A stretch of 64,000 bases of DNA from Candidatus Bathyarchaeota archaeon. Its GTDB lineage: Archaea; Thermoproteota; Bathyarchaeia; TCS64. The position numbers are program-made. Location of the stretch: contig CAVYVF010000023.1 of NCBI GenBank assembly GCA_963771885.1, positions 384,001 through 448,000 on the forward strand. Reading direction: 5' to 3'. Position 1 is the stretch's first letter. The number at the start of each line of letters is the position of its first letter. Positions 45,001 through 48,000 of the stretch are shown here, one piece after another.

Positions 45001-48000
45001 CTTTCCACCGCCCTTAACTAGTAATACAACACCGAGTGCAGCGAAACCGACAGCTGCGCAGAGCAGGAAGATCGAGCGAAGTCCCAGTCCCACGGCGAGA
45101 AAGCCGCTCACGGTCTGACCGAGAAAGCTCCCCGTAAGCTCCACCGCTTGGAAAAGTCCAAGGTAGCGCCCCCTAGTTTTATTCGGGAAGAGGCTGCTAA
45201 CGTAGGTCATACCAATGCAAAAGAAGCTCGCGTCTCCCACCCCCCAGAGTGCGCGGGCGACGATTAACACCCAGATGTCGTTCGTTAAGTAGCAGGCGAG
45301 AGCACCGAAGATGCCGAAGAACCGCCCCGCGATGAGGAGTCTACGAATCGCCACCTTGTCGCTGAGTACGCCTATCGGGAACTCGGCGAGCATCCTGACG
45401 ACGAAGTAGCCGGAGACGGCGAGACCGACGAGGAATATGGGTGCCGTGAAGCTCTGCCTGACGAATGGGGCGAATATGGGGTAGATGAGCCCGCCGGCGA
45501 ACATCGTCAGCGTGCCGCCGACGACCATGAGAAGGTACTCGCGGCTCTCCGGCTTCAATCTGGGTCCGCCCGATACCCACGCACCGCGGGGATTTAAACA
45601 CCGACCCCGCCCTCAGATAAGTTTTTCAGCCCACGCCCCCCGGGTTCAAGGCGGTGGGGTTCTACGAGCAAAAGGGAGCTTCTCGTCAGTAAGATAGAGA
45701 ACGGAATAGTCATAGACCACATCCCCTCGGGGAAGGCTTTCCAAGTCCTCCGACTCCTAAAGGTGGAGCCGGATGCCCAGGCGCTCATCGCCCAGAACGT
45801 GGAAAGCAAGACGATGGGGCGGAAGGATCTCATAAAGATCGAGGGAACCTATCTCACGAGCAAACAGATAGACCTCATAGCCTTCCTCGCACCCGACGCC
45901 ACCCTCAACATTATACAGGACTGGGACGTGAAGGAAAAGAGGCGGATACAGCTCCCGAAACAGGTCGAGGGTATATTCAGGTGCCCTAACCCCCTCTGCC
46001 AAACGAACGCCCCCTTCAGTACATTCAAGACAAACTTCAAGGTCGAGAAGGGGGAGCGCATCGAGGCGACCAAGCTCAATTGCACCTACTGCTCAAGCGT
46101 AAGCTACTACGGCCCCGTGCTAGAGCAGCTCACGCGTGACGACTTCACTATCGAGGGTAGCGGGCTCGTCAGCCAGGAGAAGATAGAGCGTGTCCTCCTA
46201 GACGCCCTCATCAAGGGCGGAGCCCTGCGCTTCCCTACAAGCTCCAAGGAGCTCTTCCTGCTTAAGAGCGGGCGCAAGAGCCCCTACTTCGTCAACCTCG
46301 GCGCCCTCACAGATGGCGAGAGCCTCGGCAAGCTCAAGTGGGCCTTCGCCAGCTACATCGCCCTCCAGATGGAGAAGGGAGAGTTACCAGACTTCGACTA
46401 CGTTTTCGGCCCGAGCTACAAGGGCATCAGTCTCGCTGCTCTCACCTGCGAGGGACTCCGCGAACTATACGGCATGAAGAAGCGCTTCATGTACGACAGG
46501 AAGGAGGAGAAGAGCTACGGCGACATGACCGCCGACAAGGTAATCGTCGGCGCTGGCTACTACAAGCCGGGTCAGCGTATACTCGTTGTCGATGACACTA
46601 TTACTACGGGCGCCACGAAGGTGGACACTTTCGAGAAGCTCCACTTACTTGAGGACCACAAGGTAGTCGGACTCGTAATTGCAGTCGACAGGCAGGAGAA
46701 GATGGGCGACGCCGAGCACATAGAGGCGAAGACCCCCACTGAAAACATACAGGACGAGCTAGGCATTAGGGTCTTCAGTATTCAGAATATCAAGAGCATC
46801 TACGGACTCATCAAGGATGGGCTCGACCCCGAGATGAAGAAGCTCTGGCTCGACTACTACAACAAATTCGGGATAGTCAAACTGGAGTAGCCGTTTTTAT
46901 TCCGCAACTCCGCTTCCCCATCCATGGAGCGGTTTGATGTACTCGTCGTCGGCTCGGGTTCGGGTATGACGATAGTCGAGGGTGCCCTCAACAAGGGGTT
47001 GAGGGTTGCACTCGTCGAGAAGGATGAGCTAGGAGGAACCTGCCTCAACAGGGGGTGTATACCGAGCAAGATGGTAATATACCCCGCAGACGTCGTCGAG
47101 GAAATTAAGCGCGCCGCCGCCCTCGGGGTCAAGGTGACCATAGACAGGATCGACTTCCAGACGATAATGGCGCGTATGAGGCGTAGCGTTGAGGAGGACC
47201 GTCGCCACATGGAGGAGAGCGTGGCGCGCATCAATACTCTCCGTTATTACCACGCGGTTGGCGAGTTCACGGGCGACTACAGGATGACGGTCGCCGGCGA
47301 TGAGATCGAGGCGAAGAACGTTTTCCTAGTCTCGGGTGCGCGTCCCGACATTCCAGCCATCAATGGCCTCGACAAGGTACCCTACCACACAAGCAGGGAC
47401 ATTTGGGAACTAAATAGCCCCCCCGAGAGCCTGATAATCATAGGTGGAGGCTATATCGCAGCAGAAATGGCTCACTTCTTCAGCGGCATCGGCGTCGATG
47501 TTAAGGTACTTAGCCGGAGTCCCCGACTTCTTAGACGTGTCGAGCCCGAGATCGGTGAGACTCTTACGCAGGCTCTTAGGGCGAGGATGACTGTTAAAAC
47601 CGGAGTCGAGTTCCTTGGCGTGACTGAGTCGGGCGGTATCAAGGAGGTCACGGTCAAGGAAGGTAGCGAGGAGCAAGTCTATCGGGCTGACAATATACTC
47701 GTCGCTACCGGGGAGAGGGGAAACGCTGACCTGCTCAGGGTTGAGAAGACCGGCGTTGCCGCCGATGAGAGGGGCTACATAAAGGTGAATGAGTTCTATG
47801 AGACTGGCAAGCCCCGCATCTGGGCCTTCGGCGATGCCATCGGCAGGGCGATGTTCAAGCACGTCGCCAACAGAGAAGCTGAGATTGTCTGGCACATCTT
47901 CGACCATGGCCACAAGCAAGTTCTCGACTACGACAAGGTCCCCTACGCTGTTTTCACCTCACCGCAGGTAGCTGGCGTCGGCATTACTGAGGATGAGGCC

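Follow-up and report, generated by a model that had tools for sequence, protein, structure and literature searches.

The classic model of allosteric control is aspartate carbamoyltransferase (ATCase), whose regulatory chain, PyrI, has to our knowledge been seen only by itself, as a separate subunit, or joined to the ATCase catalytic chain. In the metagenome-assembled genome (MAG) of a Candidatus Bathyarchaeota archaeon, an uncultured inhabitant of sediment (assembly GCA_963771885.1), one gene instead joins PyrI to orotate phosphoribosyltransferase (OPRTase, PyrE). It lies in a window of 64,000 nucleotides (contig CAVYVF010000023.1, 384,001 to 448,000), to which all coordinates below refer. The locus raises the question of whether the two halves are truly one gene, whether the cell has any other copy of either function, and whether a PyrI that carries a later enzyme of the pathway still serves ATCase. 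The design appears to be new, as the first-pass annotation had suggested: within the listings and beginnings of abstracts returned by a full-text literature search, with subscription journals outside its reach, there was no printed description of a PyrI-PyrE fusion.

Anatomy of the fused gene

The fusion was called mechanically as an open reading frame at 45763..46890 on the + strand (375 aa, GTG start), and the frame is open as first reported. The call is shorter than the gene. The same frame remains open upstream to a TAA at 45595-97, the missing PyrI N-terminus is encoded in frame between that stop and 45763, and the called frame alone lacks the first third of the PF01948 allosteric domain. 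Read from 45598, the protein matches Pfam PyrI (PF01948) over model positions 2-92 of 93 (104.9 bits, cut-off 25) and the PyrI_C zinc domain (PF02748) above its cut-off of 23.4 (Table 1), while Pribosyltran (PF00156) reaches 22.8 bits, below its cut-off of 26.3. In NCBIfam, TIGR00240 (ATCase_reg) is a narrow miss at 145.6 bits (cut-off 148.55) and TIGR00336 (pyrE) scores 98.1 bits, below 106.8; PyrE models are by far the best phosphoribosyltransferase (PRTase) matches of the PyrE half, though below cut-off. The best solved relatives are the Sulfolobus acidocaldarius chain 1pg5_B for the PyrI half (6e-33) and yeast OPRTase 2pry_A for the PyrE half (3.4e-28, residues 173-400 aligned).

Table 1 Features of the PyrI-PyrE locus (positions in the window).
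Feature	Position	Strand	Basis or remark
A/T-rich element AGATAAGTTTTTC, candidate BRE/TATA promoter	45615..45627	+	Last base 27 bases upstream of the ancestral GTG
Ancestral GTG start (45654-56) followed by GGG (45657-59)	45654..45659	+	Same-genus alignment
In-frame ACG, candidate near-cognate start	45664..45666	+	Where 408-aa relatives have ATG/TTG (M-S-K/E-R-E-L-L-V)
PyrI allosteric (nucleotide-binding) domain	45682..45948	+	PF01948; 1pg5_B, 6e-33
PyrI zinc (PyrB-contact) domain, four cysteines	45961..46098	+	PF02748, 30.8 bits
Linker, about 12 residues	46132..46167	+	From where stand-alone PyrI homologues stop to where stand-alone long-type PyrE homologues begin
OPRTase domain (long, ~240-aa type) and stop codon	46168..46890	+	TIGR00336; 2pry
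Dihydrolipoyl-dehydrogenase-like flavoprotein gene	46924..48306	+	NF004947, 556.8 bits (cut-off 592)

Alignments of stand-alone PyrI stop at about query residue 154 and those of stand-alone PyrE start at about residue 167. An AF2 model of the monomer (pTM 0.71) shows a helix over residues 147-155, after which confidence dips (block mean 65) at residues 161-170, the linker region being its least confident part. With a single open frame, Pfam and NCBIfam matches and solved relatives for both halves, the earlier claim that one polypeptide contains a full OPRTase together with the two PyrI domains is upheld: the gene is a genuine, complete PyrI joined end to end with a complete long-type OPRTase in one frame.

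Like stand-alone PyrI of class B ATCase (1PG5 chain B, Methanocaldococcus jannaschii 2YWW and E. coli 1D09 chain B, matched at 6e-33, 2.7e-30 and 8.2e-26), the fusion has both domains at full length, the nucleotide-site motifs and the four zinc cysteines; unlike it, the fusion bears a 240-residue enzyme at its C-terminus, does not lie beside pyrB and falls in a clade of its own. The PyrE half aligns over the whole of long-type OPRTase (yeast Ura5p, 2PRY), keeps its PRPP motif and catalytic loop, and is 51-61% identical to stand-alone archaeal long OPRTases (237-243 aa, from Aenigmatarchaeota and some Bathyarchaeia), but unlike these it is fused behind PyrI. In the PyrB-PyrI fusion (NF009916, as in Thermotoga) PyrI is likewise covalently joined to an enzyme of the pyrimidine pathway, whereas the partner here is PyrE and PyrI is N-terminal; the model scores 52.4 bits where 800 are required, with the PyrI part alone matching. 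UMP synthase (PyrF-PyrE or PyrE-PyrF; NF004034) and CAD also hold related or consecutive pyrimidine enzymes in one chain, but they join catalytic enzymes of adjacent steps, while the present fusion joins the purely regulatory subunit of step 2 with the enzyme of step 5. NF004034 gives 22.6 bits against 656 and the fusion has no OMP decarboxylase domain. Other PyrE-containing fusions, of 457-545 aa, occur among the distant matches.

Copy number and genomic context

The MAG is 92% complete with an estimated contamination of 6.66%. PF01948 has a single match in all of it, the fusion gene, which is also the best match of TIGR00336, of TIGR01367 and of a short Bathyarchaeial PyrE query. No second OPRTase was found in the 92%-complete MAG, the two weak extra matches being a purine-PRTase-like protein and a PRPP synthase. 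As far as this MAG extends, the fusion is thus the only PyrI and the only OPRTase, as first proposed. The genes pyrB, pyrC, pyrD and pyrF are present elsewhere, pyrF as a separate gene on contig C22, and by the same searches the PyrE half fills the OPRTase step of an otherwise present pathway.

The first-pass annotation also placed the fusion apart from pyrB, and this agrees with what we find: pyrB is on C22 (TIGR00670, 341.8 bits) and no pyrI was found beside it there. A 157-aa antisense ORF downstream of pyrB, considered as a divergent pyrI, is spurious, having no family match and overlapping a methyltransferase-like gene on the opposite strand. Among 87 loci checked, pyrB lies within 4 kb of the fusion in one (L096), where the two are convergent.

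The flavoprotein gene starts 34 bases past the fusion stop, and a homologue follows the fusion on the same strand at 35-100 bases in most Bathyarchaeial loci; none was found after the fusion in Caldarchaeum loci. It is a conserved neighbour and may share an operon with the fusion.

Distribution and origin

At E<=1e-5, 607 proteins match the fusion. The best 120 of the 607 are 401-453 aa long, 68-94% identical at 99-100% query coverage, and named Bathyarchaeia, Bathyarchaeota or Thermoproteota; in public records the name of such a protein is "ATCase regulatory subunit" in some cases and "OPRTase" in others. In our class sample, 37 of 201 genomes have the full-length fused frame, 35 of them in three families of the window's order, and in 31 of the 37 it is the only match at E<=1e-5, while the other families of the sample have stand-alone matches of PyrI size. 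The fusion is therefore widely conserved, as had been claimed. Within Bathyarchaeia its range is one order and one further genus, and the range does not end with that class: MAGs of Caldarchaeum/Aigarchaeota and Geothermarchaeales have the fusion too, and in Caldarchaeales the fused gene is the only PyrI in all five genomes.

A single branch (SH-aLRT 99) of the PyrI tree splits 45 fused from 24 stand-alone Bathyarchaeial PyrI, and six true stand-alone long forms make one clade in the PyrE tree. The trees are compatible with a single origin, and the fused gene would have arisen once or very few times; it is vertically maintained.

Stand-alone pyrI adjoins pyrB in the five non-fusion Bathyarchaeia that we compared by coordinates. 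Short PyrE, 30-34% identical to the PyrE half and of another type, was found in three of five non-fusion genomes searched, one of which also has a stand-alone long form. Because the PyrE half differs in type from the short PyrE of these three genomes, both native genes seem to have been replaced: the fused gene apparently took the place of the native stand-alone pyrI and, as far as its own genome shows, of the native short pyrE. PyrB, which was detected in 38 of 41 genomes from the order, looks native and of vertical descent; it is 58-65% identical within the order, the non-fusion genome G006 included, 49-58% to other Bathyarchaeia and 47% to the Geothermarchaeales PyrB, values that give no sign of co-transfer of pyrB with the fusion. 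Since PyrB appears to be native and the identity between fused and native Bathyarchaeial PyrI is only about 41%, the incoming regulatory chain would have had to fit a foreign catalytic chain.

Residue conservation and docking on PyrB

Conservation was assessed in 45 fused proteins of 49-89% identity. The nucleotide-site motifs VIDHI and GxKDxxKxE are invariant in these and common to 24 stand-alone PyrI; cysteines C105, C110, C138 and C141 (numbering from 45670) are invariant in 45/45 and conserved in stand-alone PyrI, and the CPN..C motif of the zinc domain is kept in every fused protein. On the PyrE side KSGRxSPYF, GPxYKG, YDRKExKxYGD and VDDxxTTG are invariant, as are the PRPP motif, the catalytic loop with its lysine and the orotate-site residues in alignment with yeast OPRTase, the roles of these residues being those given in the OPRTase literature. 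As far as sequence can tell, the PyrE half is the cell's catalytic OPRTase.

When thinned sets of 18 fused and 17 stand-alone PyrI are compared, 29 positions are >=90% conserved with the same residue in both, and no position was found at which each set conserves a residue of its own. K8, G12, V14-I18, N43, S46, G50, K52, D53, K56, E58, N80 and K90, which from E. coli work we take to belong to the CTP/ATP site, are >=90% conserved and identical in the two sets. Of the positions that stand-alone PyrI conserves, seven are relaxed in fused proteins, among them 117 and 133 in the zinc domain and 151 in the C-terminal helix.

We know of no role of PyrI beyond ATCase, and of none for its zinc domain except contacting PyrB. 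Given this, the conserved zinc-domain and nucleotide-site residues and the disappearance of stand-alone pyrI from genomes that have the fusion, it is reasonable to infer that the fusion docks on PyrB. The PyrI half would then keep its usual job and bind CTP, UTP or ATP, its zinc domain would dock on unlinked PyrB trimers, and the OPRTase would be tethered to the ATCase holoenzyme; such a tether may just fix stoichiometry and proximity, or may transmit ligand occupancy between both enzymes. The C-terminal end of the zinc domain, where the OPRTase is attached, lies in E. coli structures near the catalytic-chain contacts, and an OPRTase in this place could hinder docking. Prediction of the complex of PyrB (alignment of 25) with PyrI residues 1-160 (alignment of 45), run without controls, gave 0.00 in both runs and speaks neither for nor against docking.

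On balance we lean slightly towards one composite reading: a genuine bifunctional gene with a catalytic PyrE half, a PyrI half that docks on PyrB and an N-terminus that is still translated. Counting against it are the unlinked pyrB, the native and thus foreign PyrB that the fused PyrI would have had to fit, the attachment of the OPRTase close to the expected PyrB contacts, the seven relaxed PyrI positions, the sub-cut-off NCBIfam scores and the lack of a canonical start for the PyrI N-terminus.

The PyrI module might alternatively no longer serve ATCase and act as a built-in nucleotide sensor that gives the OPRTase its own CTP/UTP/ATP feedback, PyrB being left as an unregulated trimer. The separate location of pyrB fits this, as do the vertical descent of PyrB as against a fused PyrI in a clade apart from native PyrI, the few zinc-domain positions relaxed in fused forms, and the short linker and monomer pTM, with which the domains may pack together. 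However, a zinc domain without any other role known to us keeps its four cysteines and CPN..C throughout the 45 proteins, and no position conserved in both PyrI groups has changed its residue. Stand-alone pyrI is moreover lost, with no second match in 31 of 37 fused genomes and none in the five Caldarchaeales, which fits replacement of PyrI's normal job. We consider the sensor rather unlikely.

Docking could also come with cross-talk, as the first-pass annotation proposed, PRPP, orotate or OMP occupancy shifting ATCase between T and R through the regulatory chain, or the reverse. The linker is short, residues L166 and S168 at its edge are invariant in 45/45, and the monomer pTM together with helix 147-155 suggests that the domains are not fully independent; the OPRTase and the PyrI pair, both two-fold dimers, could judging by known structures share the two-fold axes of the holoenzyme. 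Yet the linker is where the model is least confident, and it is common for fused enzymes of one pathway not to be coupled allosterically, which leaves such cross-talk doubtful. An explicit form of it, improbable in our judgement, is a super-complex in which two PyrB trimers are bridged by three (PyrI-OPRTase) dimers with OPRTase on the two-fold axes, PRPP, orotate or OMP shift ATCase between low- and high-activity states and, as a side case, translation begins at the ACG or by a +1 shift at GTG-GGG-T.

An extra base at the N-terminus

The translated N-terminus of the preferred reading needs a start. The first-pass annotation had ascribed a PyrI about 35 aa short to a miscalled start or a truncation; the cause is instead a real one-base insertion after the ancestral start, common to other strains. 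The G run at 45656-59 has four G here against three or two in relatives, and this one extra G shifts the ancestral GTG away from the reading frame of the gene; at this point, loci of the same genus have GTG-GAT-TCT-ACG or GTG-GGT-TCT-ACG. Sequencing error is ruled out by the presence of the extra G in L021, a separate MAG of the nearest strain, and by contigs of three DNA runs from three studies, which span the site with 0 gaps. RNA-library contigs (X15) cover 45776 onward only and stem from relatives. Upstream, the element AGATAAGTTTTTC is kept at the same spacing in same-genus loci and about 30 Bathyarchaeial loci have a related motif, RWAAVRTTTTTC, 33-36 nt ahead of the start, so that an archaeal BRE/TATA promoter is likely.

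The insertion might have made the PyrI half a young casualty in this species, its start lost to the extra G, translation beginning at GTG 45763 or later and the OPRTase function alone kept. In support, no ATG, GTG or TTG was found in the gene frame between 45598 and 45763, the out-of-frame ancestral GTG would yield a 12-residue peptide, and the insertion is fixed across strains. But GTG 45763 is not conserved, L021 having GTT where the 375-aa ORF starts, and the PyrI and PyrE halves diverge at similar rates from a 94%-identical relative. The differences between window and L021 within 45664-45762 are furthermore synonymous in the gene's frame (3/3, a small count), as is a difference at 45738 in contigs of two runs, whereas both differences just upstream (45602 and 45632) are non-synonymous. 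Hence we find a casualty quite unlikely; the upstream N-terminal codons appear still to be translated, from a non-canonical start. The codon matching ACG 45664 in the N-terminus alignment is ATG in L008 and L022 and TTG in L012, and this ACG is a candidate start codon. Rfam gave only a 19-bit chance match for a frameshift-driving RNA element at the start, and no stable RNA structure was found there, the fold being no better than shuffles (z +1.06).

That assembly or binning merely joined two neighbouring genes through a sequencing error has a negligible probability: the contamination of the MAG and a methyltransferase-like gene near pyrB split between two frames could be held in its favour, but the junction falls exactly where stand-alone homologues stop and start, and an assembly chimera is excluded by the same uninterrupted frame in 37 of the 201 genomes of the class sample, in dozens of independently assembled MAGs from numerous projects and in records of complete chromosomes.

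Discussion

The PyrI-PyrE fusion is a real, conserved and unstudied design. Given that records name either the ATCase regulatory subunit or the OPRTase, one of these functions will go unnoticed when pathways are reconstructed for Bathyarchaeia and Aigarchaeota. A lineage-wide swap of the regulatory chain for one that bears the enzyme of a later step would, if true, be a new wiring of the pathway: at least a covalent tether that links step 2 with step 5, and at most a new input into ATCase allostery. Were the super-complex to exist, a late step of the pathway would join the end-product nucleotides in controlling a textbook allosteric enzyme.

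Results

The fused PyrI-PyrE open reading frame reported in the first-pass annotation exists as claimed, but it is part of a larger gene, whose frame stays open upstream of 45763, back to TAA 45595-97, and there codes for the N-terminus typical of PyrI. Read from 45598, the product matches Pfam PyrI (104.9 bits, model positions 2-92 of 93) and PyrI_C (30.8 bits), has a sub-threshold match to Pribosyltran (22.8 bits vs 26.3), and narrowly misses the equivalog scores of the NCBIfam models ATCase_reg TIGR00240 (145.6 bits vs a cut-off of 148.55) and pyrE TIGR00336 (98.1 vs 106.8). 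None of the 15 families that NCBIfam lists for the fused protein is a dedicated bifunctional PyrI-PyrE model, and the protein is neither a PyrB-PyrI fusion (52.4 bits vs a cut-off of 800) nor a UMP-synthase-type fusion (22.6 vs 656). The best solved relatives of the PyrI half are PyrI from S. acidocaldarius (1pg5_B, E = 6e-33), M. jannaschii (2yww, E = 2.7e-30) and E. coli (1d09_B, E = 8.2e-26); the best for the PyrE half is yeast OPRTase (2pry, E = 3.4e-28). With residues numbered from 45670, stand-alone PyrI homologues stop at about residue 154 and stand-alone long-type PyrE homologues start at about 167, so the halves are joined end to end via roughly 12 residues. An AlphaFold2 monomer model (45 sequences, mean pLDDT 83, pTM 0.71) places a helix at 147-155, and its confidence is lowest mainly in the linker (block mean 65, residues 161-170) and the OPRTase flexible loop. 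Base composition near the gene is unremarkable. By its domains and motifs the fused protein is recognizable as both a PyrI and a PyrE.

Some PyrI relatives (P0149, P0154, P0197) carry 45-75 additional N-terminal residues. Distant relatives of the PyrE half form the C-terminus of 457-545 aa proteins (P0146, P0155, P0159, P0170, P0192, P0193, P0224, P0251), which are other PyrE fusions, presumably with OMP decarboxylase.

In 45 fused proteins with identities as low as 49%, the nucleotide-site motifs of PyrI (K8, G12, V14, D16-H17-I18, N43, S46, G50, K52-D53, E58), its four zinc cysteines and N107 are invariant, as are the KSGRxSPYF, GPxYKG, YDRKExKxYGD and DDxxTTGxTK motifs and R341 of the PyrE half; these residues were aligned to the solved proteins and are taken by us to have the roles assigned in work on E. 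coli ATCase and on OPRTase. When the PyrI sets were thinned to similar diversity (18 fused, 17 stand-alone), the same residue was at least 90% conserved in both at 29 positions, and no position was conserved in both with differing residues; seven positions (29, 69, 72, 79, 117, 133, 151) are conserved in stand-alone PyrI only and five in fused PyrI only. In terms of sequence constraint, this is the pattern of a functional PyrI that has changed modestly.

Relatives begin either with M-D/G-S-T-S-K-R-E-L-L-V from a GTG start (411-aa type) or with M-S-K/E-R-E/Q-L-L-V from ATG or TTG (408-aa type). The first-pass annotation had noted that the called frame is shorter at the N-terminus, which is correct, and had suggested a miscalled start or truncation; the cause is instead a real additional G. 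Four bases follow the GTG in the window vs three in same-genus loci (GTG-GGGT vs GTG-GGT or GTG-GAT), which puts GTG 45654 out of frame with the gene; translation from it would yield a 12-residue peptide. There is no in-frame ATG, GTG or TTG in the open region ahead of 45763. An assembly slip can be rejected, as the start region is identical in a locus of another MAG (L021), which differs at 53 positions (49 codons) over the 1293 bases 45598-46890, and three DNA runs, belonging to three studies, have contigs that span the site gap-free (run records 1, 17 and 22, with 18, 1 and 17 substitutions, 0 gaps each and no insertions or deletions tabulated). In L021 the codon at 45763 is GTT, so conservation does not extend to the called start. 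All three differences between the window and L021 in 45664-45762 are synonymous in the gene's frame, both of those just upstream (45602, 45632) are non-synonymous, and a 45738 difference in two runs is synonymous, among the rows listed. Small as these counts are, the upstream N-terminal codons look to be still translated and under selection. The candidate start codon is the in-frame ACG 45664, which occupies the position of the start codon in 408-aa forms (ATG in loci L008 and L022, TTG in L012) and follows a G-rich stretch, as do starts in other loci. The alternative is a +1 shift at GTG-GGG-T, restoring the M-G-S-T-S N-terminus found in one relative (P0029). No Rfam family or unusual RNA structure was found at the start.

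Coordinates of the fusion gene, its neighbours and loci compared (window positions unless a contig or locus is named)
Feature	Location	Strand	Remarks
PyrI-PyrE, mechanical ORF	45763-46890	+	375 aa, GTG start
Conserved A/T-rich element AGATAAGTTTTTC	45615-27		ends 27 bases ahead of GTG
Dihydrolipoyl-dehydrogenase-like flavoprotein gene	46924-48306	same as fusion	556.8 bits, just below cut-off; starts 34 bases past the fusion's stop
Nitroreductase-family gene	48360-48938		after flavoprotein gene
Divergent pyrI/pyrB, non-fusion Bathyarchaeia	G002:C16:52776-54218
Divergent pyrI/pyrB, non-fusion Bathyarchaeia	G011:C1:135551-136997
Divergent pyrI/pyrB, non-fusion Bathyarchaeia	G014:C3:43079-44637
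Divergent pyrI/pyrB, non-fusion Bathyarchaeia	G028:C2:31165-32624
Divergent pyrI/pyrB, non-fusion Bathyarchaeia	G077:C16:18008-19464
Native-type stand-alone PyrI in a fused genome	G048:C44:25559-26038 (L020 4584-5057)	-	no pyrB within 5 kb
SAM-methyltransferase-like gene near pyrB	G000:C22:25359-25996 (L006 7359-7996)	+	two overlapping frames, L006 7359-7658 and 7655-7996
Broken fusion	L081 3992-5216		frame changes/stops; 9 stops if read in one frame
Split fusion	G054:C66:3389-4604		1 TGA, 2 TAA

The statement that this is the genome's only PyrI and only PyrE, with pyrB far away, held up throughout the MAG (2.46 Mb, 23 contigs, 92.24% complete, 6.66% contamination). PF01948 has a single match, the fusion gene, which is also the best match of TIGR00336, of TIGR01367 and of a short Bathyarchaeial PyrE query; two further PRTase matches, both weak, correspond to a purine-PRTase-like protein and to PRPP synthase. 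Contig C22 carries pyrB (341.8 bits) and pyrF, 6 kb apart, as well as pyrD; the two pyrC candidates are elsewhere, on C2 and C23. No pyrI was found beside pyrB on C22: a 157-aa ORF just downstream has no family match and is spurious, arising from the antisense strand of a split methyltransferase-like gene. The latter lies between adenylate kinase and pyrB, and its split reflects a frameshift or, alternatively, a slip in the assembly. For carB, the large subunit of carbamoyl-phosphate synthetase, TIGR01369 has no match in the 92% complete MAG and PF02786 reaches only 19.9 bits in a 376-aa frame. ATCase is encoded, as are the other steps of the pyrimidine pathway and an OTCase-like gene at C2:351076 (154.7 bits against the ATCase model); another source, for example carbamate kinase, may supply the carbamoyl phosphate.

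In most Bathyarchaeial fusion loci the flavoprotein gene is the next gene downstream, on the same strand, and in many the nitroreductase-family gene comes after it; neither was found downstream of the fusion in Caldarchaeum loci. Among 87 loci checked, pyrB lies within 4 kb of the fusion in one (L096, convergent).

At a threshold of E≤1e-5, 607 proteins of a clustered protein database match the product. The 120 that were listed have 401-453 aa, 68-94% identity and 99-100% query coverage; the taxa named are Bathyarchaeia, Bathyarchaeota and Thermoproteota, the product label is either 'ATCase regulatory subunit' or 'OPRTase', and public pipelines already mark both domains on fused proteins, as the first-pass annotation had said. 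In 201 genomes drawn evenly from the window's class (190 with a match), one open frame matched from residue 1/2 to 405/406 in 37 (by a count of the rows), 35 of them in the window's order (families f1, f3 and f4) and two in one genus (g51) of family f23. In a handful more, contig ends or frameshifts cut the fusion. Other families, including f2 of the window's order with its sole sampled genome, have PyrI-size matches only, covering query residues 1 to about 155 at 38-45% identity in frames of 150-226 aa. The fusion also exists as an uninterrupted frame of 393-412 aa in MAGs of Candidatus Caldarchaeum spp., Aigarchaeota and Nitrososphaerota (48-51% identity) and in a Geothermarchaeales MAG (59%). 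A phylum sample of 251 genomes gave eight full-length matches, the window's own genome and seven of the ten genomes sampled from one genus of one family. When 1.84 billion proteins were clustered at 50%, the 23 hits at E≤1e-30 included just one full-length representative of the fusion (409 aa), plus a few fragments; the fused family is compact.

Three loci labelled Patescibacteria group bacterium (L045), Krumholzibacteriaceae bacterium (L047) and Desulfaltia sp. (L074) hold 66-70% identical copies with the same downstream flavoprotein gene and Bathyarchaeial synteny, and are probably mis-binned Bathyarchaeial contigs. The broken copies in L081 and G054 are possibly pseudogenes or poor assemblies.

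A quick maximum-likelihood tree built from the PyrI part has one branch (SH-aLRT 99) that parts all 45 fused from all 24 stand-alone sequences; as the latter are all Bathyarchaeial, the tree cannot name donors. In the PyrE tree, the six genuine stand-alone long forms (Aenigmatarchaeota, uncultured archaea, two Bathyarchaeia) form a single clade among the fused lineages, with support 92. A seventh candidate (L094) retains the linker and was rejected as a fragment of a fused gene. Since the long forms make up one clade, the fusion may have a single origin.

A short PyrE, 30-34% identical to the fused PyrE, was found in three of five non-fusion genomes searched; one of these (G137) also has a stand-alone long form (54% identity). 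Native pyrI adjoins pyrB in all five non-fusion genomes with coordinates compared. These pairs are mostly divergently transcribed across gaps of about 70-190 bases, unlike the tandem order of the classical pyrB-pyrI operon, which was seen only in G081. PyrB looks native by sequence, with 58-65% identity within the order (non-fusion G006 included), 49-58% to other Bathyarchaeia and 47% to Geothermarchaeales PyrB. Among 41 genomes of the order 38 have PyrB, and so do 90 of the 91 class genomes that are at least 90% complete. The fused gene is the only PyrI domain in five of five Caldarchaeales genomes (95-99% complete), and 31 of the 37 fused class genomes lack a second match at E≤1e-5. Among the rows listed, G048, from the window's order, is the only fused genome with a stand-alone PyrI, and one of the five further genomes with a second match has a fragment of another fused copy. 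The distribution of PyrI copies supports replacement. The coexistence of both forms in G048 represents either a transitional state or contamination.

Discussion

We are highly confident that PyrI-PyrE is a real, conserved and apparently undescribed domain architecture; as in the first-pass annotation, the listings of a full-text literature search gave no description of it. The OPRTase half is in all likelihood catalytic. We know of no function of PyrI besides binding PyrB, and on that ground we lean towards continued docking of the fused PyrI on PyrB, which would tether OPRTase to ATCase. The main rival explanation is that the PyrI module regulates OPRTase itself. Allosteric cross-talk between ATCase and OPRTase, the idea put forward in the first-pass annotation, seems improbable to us.

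Beyond that annotation, the analysis establishes how far the gene truly extends, that the +1 G at its start is real, that a conserved flavoprotein gene lies downstream, and that the fusion occurs in Caldarchaeales and Geothermarchaeales. It also points to native pyrI, and a pyrE of another type, having been replaced: the fused gene would have spread among these lineages, displacing native pyrI and, as far as the window's own genome shows, the native short pyrE, with pyrB staying in place.
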